From an uncultured Candidatus Cloacimonadota bacterium (GTDB lineage: Bacteria > Cloacimonadota > Cloacimonadia > Cloacimonadales > JAJBBL01), in NCBI GenBank assembly GCA_964610195.1, contig CAZSVG010000011.1, forward strand, positions 1 through 12,186: DNA of 12,186 nt, given 5' to 3'. Both the position numbers and the translations under genes were made by a program. The first letter of the stretch is position 1; the number at the start of each line of letters is the position of its first letter. The notes below the pieces were generated by a model that did not search any database, was not told the origin of the DNA, and was given only the letters and a program-made list of their open reading frames with translations. Below, one piece after another: positions 1-11,365 of this stretch.

Positions 1-2224
1 TCCCATTGCGATAAATATTGTATCCTTCCAAAGCACGGTTTCGAATATTTTCTATTCCGGGAGATTCCCAATAGAGATTGACATAGTCAGCACCCGATTG
101 GGCAGTCAGATTCTGAGGAGGAATCAGAAATATGGTTACATTCTGCTGATCGGAAAGAGAAGATTCATACAAACCATCGTATGCATCTGTTCCATATAAT
201 ACCGAGATCTGGTATTGGTAGTTACCATTATTCAAACCTTCATCCAGATAATTTTGGATGTCCGGTGCTTCTATTGAAAAAATCATACTCCCATTACGGT
301 AGATATTATAGCCGGTAATCTCATCCGGCCTGAATCCCACATTTATTGGCGCTATCCAATTTAAGAGAACATTATCAATATTGACCACCTCGACACTGAA
401 AACCTCTATACCGTTCAGATTGTCGATAGTACTGAAAGACCAGACAGCTGACCATGAGCTTGGATAAGCTCCATTATTGGAATTTACTCTCCAATAGTAT
501 GTTGTATTTAAATCCAGATTTCCAACCCAATAAGCTGTGGTAGCCTGATTATGGGTCAGAACAAGATCGTCAAACTCGGCGTCAGTGGCAACCTGGAGAG
601 TATAATAGACAGCATTGGTAACAGATTGCCATTGTAATTGAACATTAGTCGCCAACTCTTCCGTTTCATCGGGTGGTAAAAGCAATAGAGGCGGATCTGT
701 TGGGTCAGGAATGTCACCTATAACAAAAATTTGTTCGCCACTAAAGGAAGAACCGGCATATATATGGTCTATCGCCTGAACACTCCAGTAATAGACCCCT
801 TCTTCCAGGTAATTCAGTAGAGCACTGTTCGATTTATACTTGCCCAATGAAGCCACCCTTCGAAAACCAGTGTCCGGATCTGCCATGGGAGAAATTATAT
901 CAAGCCCATTTGATATACTCCCCACCCTTAGATTATATGTTAATCCGGTAGCCGGAGTTGTTCCTCCTGCTGATTGTTCCCAGTTAAATTGGACTCCATC
1001 GTCTGTGAGGGTAGTAAACAGACCTGTTGGGGCAGAGGCCAAACTATTGGTGGTAGGAATTATATTTTCATAAATTGTGGCTATATAGTCCTGTGAGGCA
1101 GCCCAACCAATCAAGAGAAAGTCCAGTTTACCGTCATTATTATAATCTGCGGGGACTACTGTTGATCTTCGGGCATTGATAAAAGTTAAATTTGAATTAG
1201 TAAAAGTATCAGTTCCTGTCTGGAGATAAATCCTGGTAGTCCAGGCACCTTCGATCTCTCCGGTGACTACAAGATCAAGAAGTCCGTTATTATTAAAATC
1301 ACCCCAGACTACATAACCCTGTCTGGTCCCGATAATATCTGCATTTATATTGGTGAAGGTGCCATTCCCATTATTTCTGTAAATAACCGTGAACTTTACT
1401 TCGGCATTATCTGAACCATTCATCAGGATATCGAGATATCCGTCATTATTATAATCTCCCAGAGATATAGAGGAATATCGTAAACCGATCAAGGGTTGAG
1501 CCGATAGAGTAAAAGTTCCATCCCCATTATTGATATAGATATAGGAGACATAATTAAAAGACCCGATTCTGCCAGTGACAACAACATCCAACCATCCGTT
1601 GTTATTCAGGTCACCACCTGCTACTGCTCCATGTGTAACTCCGGTGATATTTGCATCCAGATCAGTGAAGATAAAGTCTCCATTATTAATATATATTGAG
1701 GTAATCCCTTCTCCATTCTGTAACTCTCCGGCAACCATGATATCCAATAATCCGTCGTTATTAAAATCACCAAGGGTCAAATCCCCTCGATAAAGGTCAG
1801 GGATGTCACTTATTATTTCGGTAAAGGTTTCATTGCCGTTATTCATATAGATCTTGAAGTAGGAACTTCCACCTAAACCGGTATAACCGAACATGACTAT
1901 ATCATTCCAGCCGTTGTTGTTAAGATCTCCCACTACCGCTTTACTGACCCCGAGATCAAAAAGCCCTGCTTCCATGTCACTGAAAGTCCCATCTCCATTG
2001 TTACGATATATTTCGGTAAAGGGAAGATTTTCGTTACCTGTTCCGTATGTATAACCGGTGATCAGAATGTCGAGATGACCATTATTATTAAAATCACTCC
2101 AGACAGCGTCACCGAAGTAAACCTCCTGTAAACCAACATCCAGAGCTGTAAAACTAAGTTGGCCATATAGTGTTGATAGCAAAAATAACATCATTATTGC
2201 TATACCTATAGACATTATTTTCAT
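1..2224 (-). CDS. Secreted FG-GAP/VCBS-repeat beta-propeller protein with FN3-like domains. Partial: N-terminal ~741 aa are in the window and the C-terminus lies beyond the 5' edge.
   Basis: Manual reverse-complement translation from ATG (complement of 2222-2224) reads MKIMSIGIAIMMLFLLSTLYGQLSFTALDVG..., an N-terminal signal peptide. GGAGGA sits 3 nt upstream of the ATG. Seven D-x-N-x-D-G-x-x-D blades are seen (GDLNNNGWNDIV, GDFNNDGLLDIMVAG, GDLNNNGWLDVVVTG, GDYNNDGYLDIL, GDFNNNGLLDLVVTG, ADYNNDGKLDFLLIG), the pattern of FG-GAP/VCBS integrin-alpha-like propellers. These are followed by Ig/FN3-like segments with the YYW motif (YYWSVQAIDH, TYYWRVNS). The frame stays open to position 1. No plus-strand ORF longer than 77 aa overlaps it. 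The track does not list it because the stop codon is outside the window. Confidence 0.7.
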   Translation of the reverse strand, partial: MKIMSIGIAIMMLFLLSTLYGQLSFTALDVGLQEVYFGDAVWSDFNNNGHLDILITGYTYGTGNENLPFTEIYRNNGDGTFSDMEAGLFDLGVSKAVVGDLNNNGWNDIVMFGYTGLGGSSYFKIYMNNGNETFTEIISDIPDLYRGDLTLGDFNNDGLLDIMVAGELQNGEGITSIYINNGDFIFTDLDANITGVTHGAVAGGDLNNNGWLDVVVTGRIGSFNYVSYIYINNGDGTFTLSAQPLIGLRYSSISLGDYNNDGYLDILMNGSDNAEVKFTVIYRNNGNGTFTNINADIIGTRQGYVVWGDFNNNGLLDLVVTGEIEGAWTTRIYLQTGTDTFTNSNLTFINARRSTVVPADYNNDGKLDFLLIGWAASQDYIATIYENIIPTTNSLASAPTGLFTTLTDDGVQFNWEQSAGGTTPATGLTYNLRVGSISNGLDIISPMADPDTGFRRVASLGKYKSNSALLNYLEEGVYYWSVQAIDHIYAGSSFSGEQIFVIGDIPDPTDPPLLLLPPDETEELATNVQLQWQSVTNAVYYTLQVATDAEFDDLVLTHNQATTAYWVGNLDLNTTYYWRVNSNNGAYPSSWSAVWSFSTIDNLNGIEVFSVEVVNIDNVLLNWIAPINVGFRPDEITGYNIYRNGSMIFSIEAPDIQNYLDEGLNNGNYQYQISVLYGTDAYDGLYESSLSDQQNVTIFLIPPQNLTAQSGADYVNLYWESPGIENIRNRALEGYNIYRNG

Positions 2225-2391
2225 GGTTCCTCCACTTATACATCAAGTAACAATTTTATTATCGGATGTCAATGAAAATGAACTCAACAAGAAACTGTTT
2301 TGATCGAATGGCGTGATATTTTAAAAGTTTTATATAAATCAATTACTGATCAATTTTGATTACTAATTGAAGTATTCCTTGATATTCGATA

Positions 2392-2421
2392 CTAAAAAAG
2401 GGACGGATAAAGTCCGTCCCC
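2392..2421 (-). terminator. Rho-independent terminator downstream of the encapsulin shell gene.
   Basis: Perfect 7-bp GC-rich inverted repeat GGGACGG-ataaagt-CCGTCCC at 2400-2420. On the transcribed minus strand it is followed by UUUUUU (plus-strand A6 at 2394-2399). It lies 28 nt after the TAA stop at 2448-2450. Confidence 0.65.
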
Positions 2422-2447
2422 TGATAAATACTTTTTCTTCCAGTAAA

Positions 2448-3245
2448 TTATTTGATCTGGATATTTACAACTGCTTTTGGTTCCAGAATCTGCAGGCTGA
2501 ATGATTCTGTCAGAAAGAGGGTAACCTCTTTACTGGTATGATGTTCATAACCAATAGAAAAATCAGAGCCGAGAACCATTTTGAAATCTCCACCTCTGGT
2601 CGAGACTAATAGTCCGGAATCGATAAAGTTTGAGAGGATTATTTCTCCCTGCAAAACATCTTCGATCTGGGGAAAGAGGGGATAACATTCGGCAAAGTAA
2701 TTGACCGTCTTCCAAACTGAGGGTGGTAAAATCAGGGAATATGGTCCTTCTATGGCATTGTCATTCATCTTCAAAACTGCTTCTGTTAATGATGCTAACC
2801 ATTTAGACGGATCTTTGGGAAAACTTATAGCTTCTTTATTAACCGTCATTAATCCTTCTATACCAGCATCTTTTAAACCGTAATAGATCGCTTTTTCTTC
2901 GAATTCAGCAATCTGTTTGACTCCGGTCATCAAGTTATCCAATTCGATATCTTCTGCTCCCCGAGCAGCATTATCCAGGTCCCAGATCTTGAGAGTAAAA
3001 CTAACTCTCGGTTCTACTGCCGGTATGATCTTGCGGATTCCGTATGATATTCCTTTATTCTTAGCCGGTTCAACTATTTTCATTCTACCTGTAGGTATAC
3101 CGGCAAAATCCCAACCTTTAGGTCCTTCTATATCAACTACTTTTCGTGCGGAAAGTAAGCTAATCAATCCTTTTTTAGCCTGATCTTCGATCTGCTCCCA
3201 GGCCTCTTCTGTAATTGGTGCTAAATTGCGTCTTAAGATACTCAT
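2448..3245 (-). CDS. enc: Family 1 encapsulin nanocompartment shell protein (Linocin M18-like, HK97 fold).
   Basis: The 265-aa protein can be aligned along its whole length, from memory, with the Thermotoga maritima encapsulin. Examples: [19 protein letters not shown] vs [44 protein letters not shown] vs [52 protein letters not shown] vs [35 protein letters not shown] lies 8 nt upstream of the ATG. The gap to the upstream cargo gene is 13 nt. Confidence 0.9.
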   Translation of the reverse strand: [265 protein letters not shown]

Positions 3246-3258
3246 GATTCATTTCCTC

Positions 3259-3594
3259 CTATTTCAGTTTCCCGATCCCCAGATCACTCTCTTTACTCTC
3301 CCCTTCTTCATCTTCAAGTTCGGTAACGGGTTTGGTAGTAAAGAGATAAGTTCTCATCTGTTCGTCCCAACCGGGCATATTACGTCTGAGCCATTCCAAA
3401 ACCATGACAGCATGTTCAATCTCTTCATCACGATTATGGGCTACTATTTTTTTTAATTCCGGATCTGTTGCGGTGGCTACCCTTTGCTGGTACCAATCAA
3501 CCGCTTCAATTTCCTCTTTCAAGCTGTTTAATGCTCTTGAAAAATCACGGTCATTTTTTGTTAATTCATCAACGGGCTCATGATAAGCACTCAT
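3259..3594 (-). CDS. encFtn: Encapsulin cargo: encapsulated ferritin-like protein (EncFtn/Flp) with C-terminal cargo-loading peptide.
   Basis: The 111-aa protein has a helical ferritin-like core carrying Glu-rich and E-x-x-H motifs typical of the EncFtn di-iron ferroxidase site (EEIEAVDWYQQR, DEEIEHAVMVLEW). Its C-terminal tail ...EDEEGESKESDLGIGKLK matches the encapsulin targeting-peptide consensus (D/S-L-G-I-G-x-L-K). AAAGGAGGA lies upstream of the ATG. The gene sits immediately upstream of, and co-oriented with, the shell gene. Confidence 0.85.
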   Translation of the reverse strand: MSAYHEPVDELTKNDRDFSRALNSLKEEIEAVDWYQQRVATATDPELKKIVAHNRDEEIEHAVMVLEWLRRNMPGWDEQMRTYLFTTKPVTELEDEEGESKESDLGIGKLK

Positions 3595-3679
3595 AATTCC
3601 TCCTTTATTATTAGATTCTAACTCTACTTAAGATAATATAATCTATATTCTTAGATTGTTAAACGTTTTTTTTGTTTTC
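3595..3679 (-). promoter_or_regulatory. Candidate sigma70-type promoter and 5'UTR for the encFtn-enc operon.
   Basis: This is an 85-nt AT-rich gap. The minus-strand reading contains TTAACA, a spacer of about 16 nt, then TATATT, ahead of the AAAGGAGGA SD. There is no terminator hairpin after the upstream FAH gene, so read-through from FAH is also possible. Confidence 0.3.
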
Positions 3680-4327
3680 TTAAAGATCTCTCATTACCCG
3701 GCACTGCAGGGTTACCAATTTTCCCAGAGATGCTTTGACAATATCTCCATCTTCGATTTTTCCCACCCCTTTGGGGGTTCCGGTGAATATCAAGTCACCC
3801 CTCTCCAGGGAAATGAAGCGGGAGATATAGGATATGATCTCATCTATCCGAAAGATCATGGCAGCAGGGCTATTATGCTGTTTCAATTCATCATTAACCC
3901 ACAGAGATAATTCTTCATGGTAGATATTGGTGATCAATTCTTTGGGGACAAATCTTGAAACCGGAGCAGAAGTATCGAATCCTTTCGCCAGAGTCCATGG
4001 ATACCCTTTCTCTTTACCTGCCAATTGGATATCTCGCAAGGTTACATCAATCCCTACTCCATAACCGGCAATATGCTCATTGGCAGCTTTGAGAGGTATT
4101 TTTTTTCCACCTTTCCCGATCAAGACAGCCAACTCCACTTCGTAATGGATATTCTGACTGGCCTGAGGTAAGATGATCATATCTCCATCTCTGATCACCG
4201 CTGTAGATGGTTTCAGAAAGAATACCGGATCGGTTGGAACTTCACTATTCATCTCGGCAATATGGTCACTGTAATTCATTCCCAGGCAGAATATCTTGCG
4301 AATTTCAAAATCCTCTTCTATGAACAT
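3680..4327 (-). CDS. Fumarylacetoacetate hydrolase (FAH) family protein (2-keto-4-pentenoate hydratase / HpcE-like).
   Basis: Typical FAH-family segments are present: KIFCLGMNYSDH, PVFFLKPSTAV, HYEVELAVLIGKGG, GYGVGIDVTLRD, GDLIFTGTPKGVG. The track ORF begins at a TTG (4346-4348). An in-frame ATG at 4325-4327 is preceded by AAAGGAGAT with 7-nt spacing, so the start is set there (MFIEEDFEIRK...). Confidence 0.8.
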   Translation of the reverse strand: MFIEEDFEIRKIFCLGMNYSDHIAEMNSEVPTDPVFFLKPSTAVIRDGDMIILPQASQNIHYEVELAVLIGKGGKKIPLKAANEHIAGYGVGIDVTLRDIQLAGKEKGYPWTLAKGFDTSAPVSRFVPKELITNIYHEELSLWVNDELKQHNSPAAMIFRIDEIISYISRFISLERGDLIFTGTPKGVGKIEDGDIVKASLGKLVTLQCRVMRDL

Positions 4328-4503
4328 AAACGTATCTCCTTTAACCAAACAAAAATGAATCTAACTTTGACGGCAATAAATTTTTTCTGAACCTGGATAT
4401 TTTCCTTAGATTATCAGTTCGTTCCTTCATATTCTGGAACCCTATTTGTTATTCTACAAGGGTTGTTTAGGTAATTAAGTTGTAATTTATTTTTTTTATG
4501 AAT

Positions 4504-5310
4504 TCAGTTCTTCTCAGGATTTGAGGTCAGACTGATTTTTCTTAAAGCCGCTTCAATAATCTCAACCGCAACAGATGTATTAATACATGGACCAAAAGGT
4601 CTATCGTTTAAAACACCGTAAACAGGAATGGGGAAGACATCAAGCAGACCATCTACCAGATCCCTTTCACAGGCTACTGCAATAATGAATTTAGGTCTGT
4701 GTTTGATGATTATTCTCCGGGCCAGTGAGCCCCCGGTAGCAATGGCAATATTTACTCCAGTTTCCCGTGCTATTCTCTTCAGGTCAGTGATCTTACATTT
4801 TCCACAATCGCGGCAGTTGTTGATATCAACAGTGACTCTGATCTGGCAATCTGTATTTTGCAGACAGTGGGGTAAAAGGATCAGGATATCTCGTGGCTGG
4901 TATTTTTTGGACAATACTTTAACGAAGGTGTTGTTGACATGAACAAACGAATCCCTTATCCGGTCTTTTGATATCCCTAAAACTTTACCGAGAATGATCG
5001 TTACCGGAAAGAGGAATCTGATAGCAATTAATACTGCCGATCTGGCGATTAGAAAATTTCTCTCCAGATAGGAAGTTAGCAGAACCAAGACGATTCCCAC
5101 CACCACAATCAGATAGTATAGTCTCAGAATATTAAGAACAGAATTAGCCAGGATCTTATTGATTTCATGGAGTCTGGGTGAAATAAACCACCAGAGCAGG
5201 GTAGTGAGAACCAACATCAGGATCAGACTGACTGTAGACAGGATCAGAAACAGATTTTTCTGTTTATGATCAATCTGAAAATCCGCTTCTAAAGCTCTCC
5301 CCTCTTTCAA
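4504..5310 (-). CDS. Integral membrane Cys-rich protein of unknown function, DUF116-like.
   Basis: The protein has two or three N-terminal hydrophobic helices (LFLILSTVSLILMLVLTTLLWWF, LYYLIVVVGIVLVLLTSYL, LIAIRFLFPVTIILG). These are followed by a soluble domain with LLPHCLQNTDCQIRVTVDINNCRDCGKCKI (C-x5-C-x10-C-x2-C-x2-C), which I recognise as the DUF116 signature. The start is a TTG preceded by GGGAG. It overlaps the fmt 3' end by 41 nt. Confidence 0.6.
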   Translation of the reverse strand: MKEGRALEADFQIDHKQKNLFLILSTVSLILMLVLTTLLWWFISPRLHEINKILANSVLNILRLYYLIVVVGIVLVLLTSYLERNFLIARSAVLIAIRFLFPVTIILGKVLGISKDRIRDSFVHVNNTFVKVLSKKYQPRDILILLPHCLQNTDCQIRVTVDINNCRDCGKCKITDLKRIARETGVNIAIATGGSLARRIIIKHRPKFIIAVACERDLVDGLLDVFPIPVYGVLNDRPFGPCINTSVAVEIIEAALRKISLTSNPEKN

Positions 5311-8992: not shown

Positions 8993-9817
8993 CTATTTTG
9001 ATATTATTATCTCTGTATTGCTCAACAGACTATTCACCAGATTATTGATCAGGTCCTGCCTTCTTTCTTGCATTACTTCTTCTCTCACGTCATCCATCAC
9101 TTCGGTAAATGGTCTATCAATAGTTCTGTTCCTTTTGTCGGTATAACGAACAAGATAAATTCCGTTACTTACCGGAACCCTTACAAAGCGGTATTGACTG
9201 ACATTACTCAAACTGTTCCAGATTTGGGGACCCATCTCTTCAGAAGTCTGATAACCAACAAAACCGTCTGTCTCTCTGCTTCTCTCCTGGGAGTAATTCC
9301 TGGCAGCTTGAGCAAAAGTTAGATTATCATTAACTATCATTGTCGCCACTGAATCAGCCATGGTATTATTATTTAACAAGATTCTCTGGATTCTGTATTC
9401 TTCACGCTCTGTTGTATATCTGCTTTTGTGTATTTGATAGTGATTGAAGACCTCTGATTCGGTTAGCTCTATATCATTAATAACAGAAGCCAGCAAAGCA
9501 TTGGCTTTGATCCTCTTTTCAGCAATCCTGATCCTTTCCCGGACCTCAGGATACTCATCTATTCCTCTTTTATGAGCTTCCTGGGCCAAAACCGTTAATT
9601 TGATAAGGTCCTCTATTTTCTCTCTTAATTCAGCATCACTTAACCCCTCAAGGGAGGTTAGATCGGTAAATTCCAATATCGAATTGAGAGTTAAAACCTC
9701 TCTGTTAACTGTAGCAATAATCTCCTGGTCATCAGGATGTTGATCTCTGCTGCAGGAGAGAATCACTAACCCTGTTATTAATACTAACAGGCAAAATAAA
9801 CTCTTTTTCTTCATCAT
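8993..9817 (-). CDS. SurA/PrsA-like lipoprotein with a degenerate, probably catalytically inactive, parvulin domain.
   Basis: It has a lipoprotein signal with lipobox LSC-S and a SurA-N-like helical region. The C-terminal parvulin-like fold (FAQAARNYSQ...GFVGYQT...PVSNGIYLVRY) has both catalytic His positions replaced (QRILL for HIL, IYLV for YHII). A 9-nt gap separates it from surA. Confidence 0.65.
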   Translation of the reverse strand: MMKKKSLFCLLVLITGLVILSCSRDQHPDDQEIIATVNREVLTLNSILEFTDLTSLEGLSDAELREKIEDLIKLTVLAQEAHKRGIDEYPEVRERIRIAEKRIKANALLASVINDIELTESEVFNHYQIHKSRYTTEREEYRIQRILLNNNTMADSVATMIVNDNLTFAQAARNYSQERSRETDGFVGYQTSEEMGPQIWNSLSNVSQYRFVRVPVSNGIYLVRYTDKRNRTIDRPFTEVMDDVREEVMQERRQDLINNLVNSLLSNTEIIISK

Positions 9818-11079
9818 TGCGGCTCAAAAGGCAGGGTATAAATTACTCTCAGATATGGTTTTTTACTTTCATCGAGAGTATTAGGCGGATAGAAAGAGAT
9901 AAAGCTGTTGTCTTTATTCTCCAACGAAGAACTTATCACCAGACCGTAATTATCTTTCAGTTCCGATATATGAGATTGCACTATGGAGGTTATGTTTACA
10001 GCTACCGAATCCGCCGTTTCACTGATTATAGATGTATAAGTGGGATTAACTATTCCCATATTTTCTACAGCAATCGGTAAACTACCAATCTCTTCAGGAG
10101 AAAATTCATTGATCAGATAGTAGGGATAGATTTGAAAGAGCTGCTCAGCAAAATGTGAAGCTTCATTTTGGGTCTGCTTAAAAAGGATTAGTTCTGCTTT
10201 ATTAACTGTTATCTTCTTTAGATCATCATCTTCCGGAAGAGGATTGAAATATTCACTTTGCAGGTTTAACTTCACCACACTTCTCGTGGGAACTATATTT
10301 CCCACTAAAATCTCTTCCTCAATGTAATAACCATCAACAGGTTGTTTGGAATTGATAAAACTGTTATAAATAGGCATTCTTTCATAGGTAACAAAAGTTG
10401 TGTCTCCGGGAGCAGCCAGATATTCAAATTTCAGAACCGGTCCGTCTGATGTTTCTCTGGAAAAGAACTCCACATAGGAATTGTTATTATTTTCAGCTAA
10501 ATCAGCAAAAATGGCCAGACCATAAGTTTCCGGAGTATCCTTTATCCAACCCTGAATCAAATCGGTCATCAGATCCATGGGAAGATTTACCGTGAGAGTA
10601 CTGTCTGTTTCACTTATCTGTTGAACTATCTCCTCCAGAATGGTCATATTACTGTAATCATCCCAGCTTTGATGCCATAACGAATCCTGACCGGATTTCT
10701 CCCAGCTAACATGGAGAGGGTCCCAAATCTGGGAAATAGTTCCGAATCTGAGATTCATTCCTTCACTATTATAGTGTTTGTTCATAGTCAGGATGAGTTG
10801 GGGATCTTCCTGCAACACAAAATTACTGTCAGGAAGATTACTGAACCTGATCAGGGTAATAGACTCATTTCCCCGAAAATTACCCACAATGCTTTTAGTG
10901 TTTCGGATAAAATTTCCTGTCTCATTTTCATAAGCATAATAATATTCAAATAGATCTTCCGCTCTAATATCAACTAAATATGGGTGAAGATCAGTTCCTT
11001 CACCTATGACATTTTTTTTATCTGAACATCCTGAAATTAAGATCAAAATCAGGATGCTTATTACAATAACTACTCTCAT
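9814..11079 (-). CDS. Hypothetical lipoprotein of 421 aa.
   Basis: Signal peptide plus lipobox (ILISGC-SD). No motif I can place confidently. Possibly a Bacteroidota/FCB-type DUF lipoprotein. Its TGA stop overlaps the downstream ATG in ATGATGA, a 4-nt overlap that indicates translational coupling. Confidence 0.55.
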   Translation of the reverse strand: MRVVIVISILILILISGCSDKKNVIGEGTDLHPYLVDIRAEDLFEYYYAYENETGNFIRNTKSIVGNFRGNESITLIRFSNLPDSNFVLQEDPQLILTMNKHYNSEGMNLRFGTISQIWDPLHVSWEKSGQDSLWHQSWDDYSNMTILEEIVQQISETDSTLTVNLPMDLMTDLIQGWIKDTPETYGLAIFADLAENNNNSYVEFFSRETSDGPVLKFEYLAAPGDTTFVTYERMPIYNSFINSKQPVDGYYIEEEILVGNIVPTRSVVKLNLQSEYFNPLPEDDDLKKITVNKAELILFKQTQNEASHFAEQLFQIYPYYLINEFSPEEIGSLPIAVENMGIVNPTYTSIISETADSVAVNITSIVQSHISELKDNYGLVISSSLENKDNSFISFYPPNTLDESKKPYLRVIYTLPFEPQ

Positions 11080-11127
11080 TCTATTAATAGTTCCTTTTAG
11101 ATATATTTTTAGTAATAGTATTAGGTT

Positions 11128-11145
11128 TGGTGGATAGGGGGATAA
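11128..11145 (+). promoter_or_regulatory. Degenerate double DnaA-box module, GGTGGATAG at 11128-11136 followed after a 1-nt gap by GGGGATAA at 11138-11145.
   Basis: The two half-boxes have 2 mismatches each to TGTGGATAA. They share the extended ...GGATAAGTC context with the module at 11310-11326. Confidence 0.4.
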
Positions 11146-11203
11146 GTCAAGCTTAATGTTCGTAAGTTGTTACTTAAGTATGTTTTTATGCTTTCGGGAA
11201 GGG

Positions 11204-11212
11204 TGTGCATAA
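11204..11212 (+). promoter_or_regulatory. DnaA box with 1 mismatch (TGTGCATAA).
   Basis: It differs from the TGTGGATAA consensus at position 5. Confidence 0.45.
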
Positions 11213-11242
11213 CTTGTGTATATTTTTTTCCTCTCCTCTCTC

Positions 11243-11251
11243 TTATCCACA
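11243..11251 (-). promoter_or_regulatory. Perfect DnaA box (TTATCCACA on the plus strand).
   Basis: Exact 9-mer consensus in the opposite orientation to the 11318-11326 box, preceded by a CT-rich and T-rich tract. Confidence 0.6.
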
Positions 11252-11309
11252 TCTCTTTAGCAGCATTAATCATTGAATCTATTTCTCAACAACTATTAAC
11301 AAACAGCAA

Positions 11310-11326
11310 TGTGGATATGTGGATAA
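11310..11326 (+). promoter_or_regulatory. Tandem head-to-tail DnaA boxes: TGTGGATAT (1 mismatch) overlapping a perfect TGTGGATAA.
   Basis: The boxes occupy 11310-11318 and 11318-11326, located 40 nt below the dnaA stop codon. Confidence 0.6.
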
Positions 11327-11365
11327 GTCGATTTGAGTTCATTGATATCTAAGATAGTCAAGGAG

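Follow-up and report, generated by a model that had tools for sequence, protein, structure and literature searches.

The question raised by this locus is whether a compact pair of genes in a Cloacimonadota genome encodes a functional encapsulin system and, if so, of which type, in which transcriptional setting and with what mobility. Cloacimonadota are abundant syntrophic fermenters in anaerobic digesters. The window analysed here, a stretch of 12,186 nucleotides, belongs to a metagenome-assembled genome (MAG) of this phylum. The earlier note had described the pair as a Family 1 shell gene preceded by a ferritin-like EncFtn cargo gene and had left the strand unstated; the whole cargo-shell unit at 2392..3679 is encoded on the minus strand. 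In the direction of transcription a promoter-like site, the EncFtn gene, a 13-nt spacer, the shell gene and an intrinsic terminator follow each other, and the Shine-Dalgarno (SD) sequences, the gap and the terminator of the proposed two-gene unit were all recovered. The features are as follows.

3680..4348, minus strand: FAA-hydrolase-family gene (YcgM/FAHD-like), directly upstream of EncFtn
3633..3662, minus strand: promoter-like site TTAACA, 16-18 nt, TATATT/TATTAT; it falls within the 85 nt that separate the FAA-hydrolase gene from EncFtn
3599..3605, minus strand: EncFtn SD AAGGAGG (GGAGG 3603..3599), 4 nt 5' of the ATG
3259..3594, minus strand: EncFtn ORF, 111 aa (ATG 3594..3592, stop TAG 3261..3259)
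3511..3513 and 3490..3492, minus strand: ferroxidase partner residues E28 and Y35, aligned to R. rubrum EncFtn
3412..3423, minus strand: ExxH ferroxidase motif E58-I-E-H61, aligned to R. rubrum EncFtn
3262..3288, minus strand: targeting peptide S103-DLGIGKLK-111, cargo end ...ESDLGIGKLK
3259..3255, minus strand: shell-gene SD GGAGG, 9 nt 5' of the ATG, its first G being the last base of the cargo TAG
3246..3258, minus strand: intergenic spacer, exactly 13 nt
2448..3245, minus strand: shell ORF, 265 aa
2982..3008, minus strand: codons of W88 (2982..2984) and R80 (3006..3008), aligned with the FMN-sandwiching Trp87/Arg79 of the T. maritima encapsulin (TmEnc)
2682..2690, minus strand: codons of E186-C187-Y188, in the alignment opposite G186-H187-Y188 at the five-fold pore of TmEnc (PMC8086157)
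2388..2422, minus strand: intrinsic terminator AGGGGACGGAC-TTTAT-CCGTCCCTT followed by TTTTAGTATC, hairpin 2422..2398

Codon differences from the relative L009 were predominantly synonymous (107 synonymous to 48 non-synonymous in the shell gene, 39 to 8 in the cargo gene), which indicates purifying selection on the pair. Due to this selection in relatives and to scores far above the curated family cut-offs, the ORF pair is no product of chance. Scans of the window with Rfam models and for tRNAs gave no match. All genes of the window could be assigned, and those for an FG-GAP surface protein, a DUF116 protein and a disaggregatase-repeat protein are among them, so that, contrary to what had been stated, the window is not otherwise made of housekeeping genes.

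The cargo passed the EncFtn-like model PF22277 with 145.5 bits (cut-off 27, E 4e-43) and TIGR04535 (ferrit_encaps) with 161.2 bits (cut-off 125). An M. xanthus-type EncB cargo was ruled out by scores below the cut-offs of NF058679 (EncB_fam; 69.3 bits, cut-off 90) and NF058678 (EncB; 18.2 bits, cut-off 210), and the protein is of the short EncFtn type. Its best solved-structure matches were the proteins of R. rubrum (5da5, 33bf) and H. ochraceum (7oe2), with E-values between 2e-31 and 6e-30. Counted by eye in the alignments, about 50% of its residues are identical to those of 5da5 and 7oe2, both of them decamers, and from this identity an annular D5 decamer may be inferred; identity to the Cloacimonadota relatives is 81-95%. 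The cargo has every residue of the ferroxidase and entry sites known from R. rubrum EncFtn, those of the entry site being E27, E30 and W34, and all are invariant across five Cloacimonadota sequences. With an offset of +4 to the R. rubrum numbering, their counterparts are presumably E32, E62, H65 and Y39 for the ferroxidase site and E31, E34 and W38 for the entry site. ExxH, which the earlier note had read in this protein, is the di-iron motif of EncFtn-type cargo (PMC11202242).

The D/S-L-G-I-G-x-L-K peptide claimed for the cargo was likewise found at its C-terminus. It is preceded by an acidic linker, ELEDEEGESKE (residues 91-102), which is probably disordered, and its positions D-L-x-I-x-x-L are invariant in the Cloacimonadota relatives. 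The peptide resembles the T. maritima sequence GGDLGIRK, bound in 3dkt, the H. ochraceum peptide, for which binding has likewise been shown by experiment, and the T=1 consensus DGSLGIGSLKG; compared with the GxLGIxxL core, it has S in place of the first G. A PDB search with the 23 C-terminal residues, a query too short to inform, gave no match. Judged by its residues, the cargo is an EncFtn with all di-iron ligands, a linker and a targeting peptide of the Flp-TP class, in which a linker of some 10-40 aa leads to a peptide with the core LGIxxL and a basic residue.

The shell protein passed PF04454 (Linocin_M18) with 247.9 bits (cut-off 24.3, E 1.3e-73) over profile positions 1-252 of 253, and the equivalog model NF041155 (encap_f1) with 256.2 bits (cut-off 100) over positions 1-260 of 261, so that both proteins came through the HMM search that had been suggested as a check. 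It matched the T. maritima encapsulin from end to end (E 5e-61, 37.5% identity over 261 aligned residues). The N-helix and P-domain are highly conserved, their invariant columns being P10, W16, I19, L31, A33, R34, G226, D228, G232, L243, T246, E247 and F249. The curated models, the fold described below, the non-viral context and the adjoining EncFtn gene, which ends 13 nt 5' of the shell gene and encodes a C-terminal DLGIGKLK, identify the shell as a Family 1 encapsulin.

The locus is therefore best explained, with a probability of about 0.9, as a Family 1 ('classical') encapsulin system of the Flp/EncFtn type that consists of two genes and is functional in its Cloacimonadota host; its assembly and activity would follow by homology. 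No observation spoke against this reading. What was observed or computed here comprises family membership, the catalytic residues and the peptide motif, a fold prediction, the anatomy of the operon, and its conservation and synteny. The pairing of shell and cargo in the earlier note was thus borne out by curated HMMs, homologues of solved structure, catalytic residues, peptide and predicted fold.

For the expression of the pair, a promoter-like match is TTAACA-16-TATATT at 3662..3635, a bare consensus match that may not correspond to the promoter type of Cloacimonadota; such consensus sites showed no enrichment over shuffled sequence. The site is kept in part: its -10-like GATTATATTAT block is common to L009 and L010, the two closest relatives. 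The EncFtn SD lies within a conserved AGGAGGAATTATGAGT block that is identical in four of five upstream alignments and carries two substitutions in L014. Only this SD/start block and the -10-like block are conserved among the five aligned EncFtn upstream regions, in which a search for a Fur/PerR-type operator revealed no obvious palindrome. The overlap of the shell SD with the cargo stop codon by one base suggests translational coupling of the pair. An ATG in another frame, 7 nt 5' of the shell start, was rejected as the true start: only 2 nt separate it from the SD, it leads into a dead-end ORF of about 30 codons, and M1 of the shell aligns with M1 of TmEnc. The terminator-like hairpin (10 pairs, 6 of them G-C, a 5-nt loop and a T-run) begins 25 nt past the stop codon of the shell gene; no other site of this kind occurs within 2000..4500.

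The alternatives were weighed against this two-gene reading. The first concerns the extent of the operon and assumes a functional unit of three genes, in which the FAA-hydrolase-family enzyme is a co-transcribed, conserved accessory and not cargo. The protein matches PF01557 (E 1.6e-57) and scores 195 bits with PRK10691, slightly below the cut-off of 201. Its gene lies on the same strand directly upstream of EncFtn in the window and is linked to EncFtn-Enc in five of six relatives (L009, L010/L011, L012, L016, L017), so that the unit is not the isolated two-gene block that had been described. Moreover, it was inverted together with EncFtn-Enc as one block, no terminator-like site separates it from the EncFtn gene, and non-cargo accessory genes occur in Family 1 operons (PMC8346489). 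Co-transcription with the EncFtn and shell genes is possible. However, EncFtn-Enc is kept in L014/L015, where the FAA-hydrolase gene is missing beside it, and the 85-nt spacer holds a promoter-like site 5' of EncFtn. To our knowledge, FAHD-type enzymes have no link to iron storage. As encapsulin cargo the enzyme was rejected, since its C-terminus, ...CRVMRDL, is not of the LGIxxL type and it is without a targeting peptide. On balance we regard a three-gene functional unit as rather unlikely and retain the two-gene system.

The second alternative concerns particle size and takes the shell to assemble as a T=3, T=4 or otherwise non-canonical particle and not as a T=1 60-mer. An AlphaFold (AF2) monomer model of the shell (pLDDT 88.5, pTM 0.84) was compared with solved structures by Foldseek. 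The predicted fold is HK97-type with N-helix, P-domain, A-domain and E-loop; in T=1 shells the E-loop is directed away from the A-domain. The best 27 matches were all T=1 encapsulin protomers (TM 0.85-0.93, rmsd 1.9-2.9 Å), wild-type T=1 shells reaching TM 0.90-0.93 at an rmsd of about 2 Å, whereas T=3 and T=4 protomers fitted clearly worse (TM 0.75-0.82, rmsd 4-8.5 Å). The length of 265 aa is also that of all T=1 shells. The T number is read here from monomer similarity, and a monomer gives no certain T number; single mutations can be enough to convert EncA among T=1, T=3 and T=4 shells (PDB 8v4n, 9b9q, 9bc8). A larger or non-canonical shell is nevertheless considered very unlikely.

The third alternative, put forward in part by the earlier note, takes the cassette for a mobile island of recent arrival. 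The distribution of Family 1 operon types over distant phyla is consistent with horizontal transfer (PMC8346489), and the 2-kb cassette underwent inversion as one block, in the window's lineage only, the terminator travelling with it (window 2395 corresponds to L009 10849). Two more distant Cloacimonadota are without the cassette at its site next to DUF116, a distribution that partly supports the patchy, accessory occurrence previously suggested. In six related lineages the cassette sits at one fixed position on the chromosome, some 8 kb from a dnaA/DnaA-box cluster, and the four shells retrieved from related lineages by shell search are just 56-82% identical to that of the window, so that the cassette must be old in the subclade. 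GC and GC3 of the cassette equal those of its flanks, and neither an integrase or transposase gene nor a tRNA or flanking repeats turned up near it in the window. In collections of plasmids and phages the single DNA match (66%) was located on a 2.6-Mb Acetoanaerobium replicon, which is no mobilisable plasmid. The nearest outgroup shells came from Bacteroidota, KSB1, Zixibacteria and Fodinibius, which we take to belong to the FCB superphylum, as do Cloacimonadota. The best inverted-repeat pair near the inversion (18 nt at 89%, 2479-2496 / 4424-4441) was rejected as its boundary because one arm lies within the shell gene; a search for the breakpoints by inverted repeats and leftover fragments left them unmapped, the junction spacers being too diverged. 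Due to the site shared by six lineages, the absence from two distant ones, the flank-like GC and the lack of anything mobile nearby, the cassette is regarded as subclade-specific, stably inherited and not demonstrably mobile; recent arrival as an island would be most improbable, and the description as mobile is not upheld.

Finally, old database names would make the shell gene the leftover of a prophage HK97 capsid or a 'linocin-type bacteriocin'. The HK97-like fold and the name 'bacteriocin family protein', still given to relatives by some sources, speak for this view, but it can be practically dismissed, since phage genes are absent from the window and the relatives' loci (no terminase, portal, protease or tail gene near the shell), tblastn of the shell against 50,697 phage records gave no match, and the shell passes the encap_f1 equivalog with a dedicated, peptide-tagged cargo adjoining.

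For the two-gene encapsulin system a mechanism can be drawn by homology with the systems of T. maritima, R. rubrum and H. ochraceum, and it is from this homology that the assembly and T number, the loading of cargo, the iron chemistry and the physiological role are deduced. Transcription of the operon would run leftward, starting near 3660 and ending at the terminator near 2400, and its two genes would be translationally coupled. EncFtn subunits of two helices would pair, forming a di-iron ferroxidase centre (E28, E58, H61, Y35) at each dimer interface, and the pairs would assemble into the annular decamer. During shell assembly the acidic linker and the C-terminal DLGIGKLK would hold the decamer at the hydrophobic cleft between N-helix and P-domain on the luminal side, while a T=1 cage about 24 nm in size would be built from 60 shell protomers. 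Fe2+ would enter via the pores, EncFtn would oxidise it, O2 or H2O2 serving as the oxidant, and a ferric mineral would be laid down within the shell. In an anaerobe such a system may serve for the detoxification of Fe2+ and oxidants and as an iron reserve.

Two sites of the shell deserve attention beyond this scheme. W88 and R80 are invariant across 121 close relatives, and the shell thereby carries the conserved Trp/Arg pair of a TmEnc-like flavin site, flavin binding being putative; among 126 diverse representatives Trp occurs at position 88 in only 44. The flavin-site Trp is present in about 10% of PF04454 (PMC8086157). The sole cysteine of the shell, C187, takes the position of TmEnc His187 at the five-fold pore. 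Cysteine is found there throughout the Cloacimonadota-type clade, but 105 of 121 close relatives and 90 of 126 diverse ones have glycine. We offer as a speculative, on the whole doubtful, proposal that the Cloacimonadota-type shell is a pore variant, in which a ring of C187 and E186 acts as a soft-ligand Fe2+ filter or a redox-sensitive gate and which, together with the Trp/Arg pair, forms an active, redox-responsive shell. If so, five thiols and five carboxylates would surround the outer mouth of the five-fold pore on the presumed path of Fe2+ to the EncFtn decamer, the gate could sense exposure to oxidants in a strict anaerobe, and the flavin pair and the pore cysteine would make the shell responsive to redox state and no passive cage. 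A cysteine-lined five-fold pore would be a natural variant of use for encapsulin pore engineering and studies of iron entry.

Overall, the system is real but ordinary, a textbook Family 1 shell with a ferritin-like cargo, as standard (PGAP-type) family models already name both proteins automatically. Among the papers searched, none mentions encapsulin together with Cloacimon*, and the term did not occur in the searched portions of the supplements of Andreas & Giessen 2021. Cloacimonadota are hereby added to the hosts of EncFtn-type encapsulins, an addition with little importance past cataloguing. It suggests that anaerobes of this phylum use a protein cage, encoded near the replication origin, to sequester iron and oxidants.

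Among known systems, that of T. maritima (3DKT, 7KQ5, 7K5W) provides the best solved match of the shell (TM 0.92). Both shells have about 265 aa and a T=1-type protomer, and in both loci an EncFtn-type cargo is encoded upstream, with peptides GGDLGIRK in T. maritima and ESDLGIGK here; the T. maritima genes for encapsulin and cargo are presumably TM_0785/TM_0786. The Trp87/Arg79 FMN pair corresponds to W88/R80 and Tyr188 of the five-fold pore is kept, whereas pore His187, preceded by Gly, is replaced by Cys187, preceded by Glu. T. maritima is a hyperthermophile, while the host here is a Cloacimonadota from metagenome assemblies.

The best cargo matches, from R. rubrum and H. ochraceum (5DA5, 33BF, 7OE2, 7ODW), have the ferroxidase and entry-site residues in common with the protein of the window, as well as a localisation sequence of the GxLGIxxL type and a shell of T=1 form, assigned here by monomer similarity. 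They are longer (131-140 aa compared with 111 aa), the linker here is short and strongly acidic, and the first position of the peptide motif is Ser/Asp here and Gly in R. rubrum and H. ochraceum. The encapsulins of M. xanthus (EncA with EncB/C/D) and Q. thermotolerans (IMEF cargo), with T=3 / T=4 shells, are also iron-mineralising Family 1 systems that load cargo by a C-terminal peptide, but their shells are distant from that of the window (E 1e-11 to 1e-5, TM 0.75-0.82, rmsd 4-8.5 Å) and differ in E-loop conformation and shell size. Tight cargo-shell operons, as found here, are the rule in Family 1 (PMC8346489). With ferritin, bacterioferritin and Dps, EncFtn has di-iron ferroxidase chemistry and a role in iron storage or detoxification in common; EncFtn itself is an open decamer without mineral capacity of its own, and it is the HK97-fold shell that does the storing (PMC8346489, PMC11202242).

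The encapsulin unit lies on the minus strand, the sole item left unstated in the earlier note, and comprises the gene of a 111-aa ferritin-like cargo (EncFtn) and that of a 265-aa Family 1 encapsulin shell (Enc). Its features, including the shell codons placed by alignment with the Thermotoga maritima shell (TmEnc), were as follows:

3662..3635, minus: sigma-70-like site TTAACA-16-TATATT (consensus match)
3605..3599, minus: AAGGAGG, SD of EncFtn (sequence)
3594..3259, minus: EncFtn ORF, 111 codons (sequence)
3259..3255, minus: second GGAGG, SD of Enc, sharing one base with the TAG stop of EncFtn
3258..3246, minus: intergenic spacer, 13 nt (sequence)
3245..2448, minus: Enc ORF, 265 codons (sequence)
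3008..2982, minus: shell codons R80 and W88 (TmEnc alignment)
2690..2682, minus: shell codons E186-C187-Y188 (TmEnc alignment)
2422..2388, minus: hairpin of 10 bp with 6 G-C pairs plus T-run, 25 nt past the Enc ORF

The 13-nt gap, both SDs and the terminator were found in the sequence exactly as the earlier note had described them. The region was reproduced in two independent ENA assemblies of the same lineage, L001 (99.9% identity over window 822..5164) and L002 (100%), and is therefore not an assembly artefact.

The proposed identity of the shell was borne out by Pfam PF04454 (Linocin_M18; 1.3e-73, whole profile covered) and by the NCBIfam equivalog NF041155 'family 1 encapsulin nanocompartment shell protein' (256 bits, cut-off 100). 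Of the solved structures, that of T. maritima encapsulin was the closest (E 5e-61; identity at 98 of the 261 aligned positions, M1 on M1). Next came T=1 shells from H. ochraceum, E. coli, K. pneumoniae and mycobacteria; matches to T=3/T=4 shells, from M. xanthus and Q. thermotolerans, were far weaker (1e-11 to 1e-5). An AlphaFold2 model of Enc was built on 25 homologues (pLDDT 88.5, pTM 0.84), and its top 27 Foldseek matches in the PDB were all T=1 encapsulin protomers (TM 0.85-0.93, rmsd 1.9-2.9 A). Wild-type T=1 shells gave TM 0.90-0.93 at an rmsd of about 2 A, as against TM 0.75-0.82 and 4-8.5 A for T=3/T=4 protomers.

The cargo was likewise recognized by its family models, PF22277 (EncFtn-like; 4e-43) and TIGR04535 'encapsulin-associated ferritin-like protein' (161 bits, cut-off 125), and fell short of the cut-offs of NF058679 and NF058678, the two models of the M. 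xanthus EncB type. Alignment with decameric EncFtn proteins, 5da5 and 33bf from R. rubrum and 7oe2 from H. ochraceum, gave E values of about 1e-30 and an offset of +4. By the R. rubrum residue numbers of the ferroxidase and entry sites, this offset places the predicted ferroxidase ligands at E28, E58, H61 and Y35 and the predicted entry-site residues at E27, E30 and W34. The ExxH motif, a di-iron motif (PMC11202242), was confirmed as E58-I-E-H61, and the C-terminus as ...ESDLGIGKLK. For comparison, the experimentally bound T. maritima targeting peptide is GGDLGIRK (PMC8229669), and the T=1 consensus is DGSLGIGSLKG, of which the LGI core fills a hydrophobic pocket while the terminal Lys contacts an acidic patch (PMC7925596). 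A GxLGIxxL core is defined by GSLGIGSLR, the peptide of H. ochraceum. SDLGIGKLK shares the LGI core and the second Leu, and it has two lysines. Among five Cloacimonadota EncFtn orthologues, D104, L105, I107 and L110 were invariant and the acidic linker was variable. The same cargo-shell pair was also observed in a high-GC uncultured bacterium (L004 7615..8798; shell 43% identical), where the stop of EncFtn and the start of the shell gene overlap and the tail of the cargo extends beyond the LGIG motif (...QDLGIGGHRKEKD).

By analogy with characterised homologues (PMC8346489, PMC11202242, PMC8229669), a single transcript would yield cargo and shell in translationally coupled form, and EncFtn dimers would build the di-iron centres and assemble into decamers. 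The C-terminal peptides of EncFtn would bind the N-helix/P-domain cleft while 60 protomers close a T=1 shell about 24 nm in diameter, and Fe2+ would diffuse in via the pores and, once in the lumen, be oxidised and mineralised. In T. maritima the ring at the decamer's centre is aligned with the five-fold pore by five bound peptides (PMC8229669).

The five-fold pore of TmEnc is lined by His187 outside and Tyr188 inside (PMC8086157), whereas Enc has Glu186-Cys187-Tyr188 at the aligned positions, with Cys187 as its sole cysteine. Among the query and its 120 closest 90%-clusters, position 187 was Gly in 105 and Cys in 13, namely the query, P0001-P0011 (eleven shell clusters of at least 55% identity, which take in every relative shown to have the common synteny) and P0083; among 126 diverse 50%-cluster representatives, there were 90 with Gly, 4 with Cys and 3 with His. 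The variant is thus rare but recurrent. As judged from these alignments, Cys187 is conserved across the Cloacimonadota-type clade, most relatives having Gly. No characterisation of the Cys187 pore variant was found in the literature search, and a functionally thiol-lined, possibly redox-responsive pore is considered unlikely. In TmEnc, FMN is sandwiched by Trp87 and Arg79 (PMC8086168, PMC8086157), corresponding to W88 and R80 in Enc, which were invariant in all 121 close relatives. The Trp was present in only 44 of the 126 diverse representatives and occurs in about 10% of PF04454 (PMC8086157). Retention of the pair places Enc in the putative flavin-binding subgroup and suggests a flavin-binding shell.

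One of the closest shells (69-82% identity) bears the name 'Candidatus Cloacimonetes bacterium', and the shell of a GTDB species representative named 'uncultured Candidatus Cloacimonadota bacterium' is 72% identical to Enc. Named matches below 56% identity came from Bacteroidota, KSB1, Zixibacteria and Fodinibius, which belong to the FCB superphylum, as does Cloacimonadota. The same neighbourhood was found in six related lineages (L009, L010/L011, L012, L014/L015, L016, L017), in the common order dnaA, disaggregatase-repeat protein, two PPIase/SurA-like genes, pgpA, yajC, def, fmt, DUF116, the cassette of Enc, EncFtn and FAA hydrolase (FAAH), FG-GAP surface protein, EamA and onward; the FAA-hydrolase gene is missing in L014/L015 and the surface-protein gene in L017. 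Codon differences from L009 are mostly synonymous in both genes (synonymous/non-synonymous: Enc 107/48, EncFtn 39/8). The earlier note had called the system mobile and accessory. Mobility was not borne out, since Enc and EncFtn have the same GC (0.40-0.42) and GC3 as the flanks, no integrase, transposase or tRNA was found in the window, tblastn of the shell against 50,697 phage records gave no match, and the sole plasmid-collection match was weak and on a 2.6-Mb replicon. The term accessory is fair at phylum scale: in two Cloacimonadota that are more distantly related (with a DUF116 protein 65% identical; one of the two loci is on a 3.68-Mb contig), DUF116 is flanked by other genes, with no encapsulin there. 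The cassette is subclade-specific and stably inherited within its subclade.

Compared with L009, both flanks align in the forward direction, but window 2395..4363 aligns in reverse, with L009 10849..8873. Besides the terminator, this inverted block of about 2 kb carries Enc, EncFtn and FAAH, plus the 15 nt that precede the start of FAAH. The same inversion was seen relative to L003, L010/L011, L012 and L014/L015, and gene order shows it for L016 and L017 too; only in the window's lineage (window, L001, L002) is the cassette co-directional with its neighbours, and all 13 window genes are consequently on the minus strand. The arrangement was confirmed by the independent assemblies L001 and L002, and a search for repeats at the inversion junctions found none. 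Just downstream of dnaA, the spacer 11080..11365 holds a cluster of four DnaA boxes (11204..11326; TTATCCACA occurs without mismatch at 11243(+) and 11318(-) and with one mismatch at 11204(-) and 11310(-)). In every relative the homologous spacer, also of about 290 nt, contains 4-6 boxes, compared with about 0.5 per kb elsewhere. The cluster lies some 7.5 kb away from the encapsulin operon and is a candidate for oriC or for a part of it; if the spacer is oriC, the cassette was head-on to replication before the inversion and is co-directional with it now.

Several neighbouring genes were also recorded. Of a large surface-protein gene with six FG-GAP_3 repeats and fn3 domains, window 1..2224 (minus) holds 741 codons of the 5' part, and the gene continues beyond the window; its full-length orthologues have about 1180 aa and a terminal Por_Secre_tail (T9SS sorting) domain. 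The DUF116 protein (4504..5310, minus) has N-terminal hydrophobic segments and a Cys-rich CLQNTDC...CRDCGKC stretch, and its gene is kept beside fmt-def-yajC across Cloacimonadota, encapsulin-free ones included. A lipoprotein-like protein of 421 aa, in which a disaggregatase-related repeat was recognized (PF06848, 3e-10), is encoded at 9814..11079 (minus); its gene has the PPIase genes on one side and the DnaA-box spacer on the other, and is kept in relatives. Just past dnaA, at a position the window stops short of, relatives carry a rubrerythrin gene (L009 20542..20798, L010 20409..20798, L012 19884..20372), so that a second oxidative-stress di-iron protein is encoded there at most about 10 kb from the encapsulin.

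Among the cargo classes of Family 1, Flp/EncFtn operons rank second in size. This exact protein already has entries in NCBI and ENA, and current NCBIfam models would name both Enc and EncFtn. Since a literature search found no paper linking encapsulin with Cloacimon*, the host phylum is the only literature-level novelty. Every testable defining feature of a Flp/EncFtn Family 1 operon is present here, and assembly, encapsulation, decamer formation and activity are predicted.
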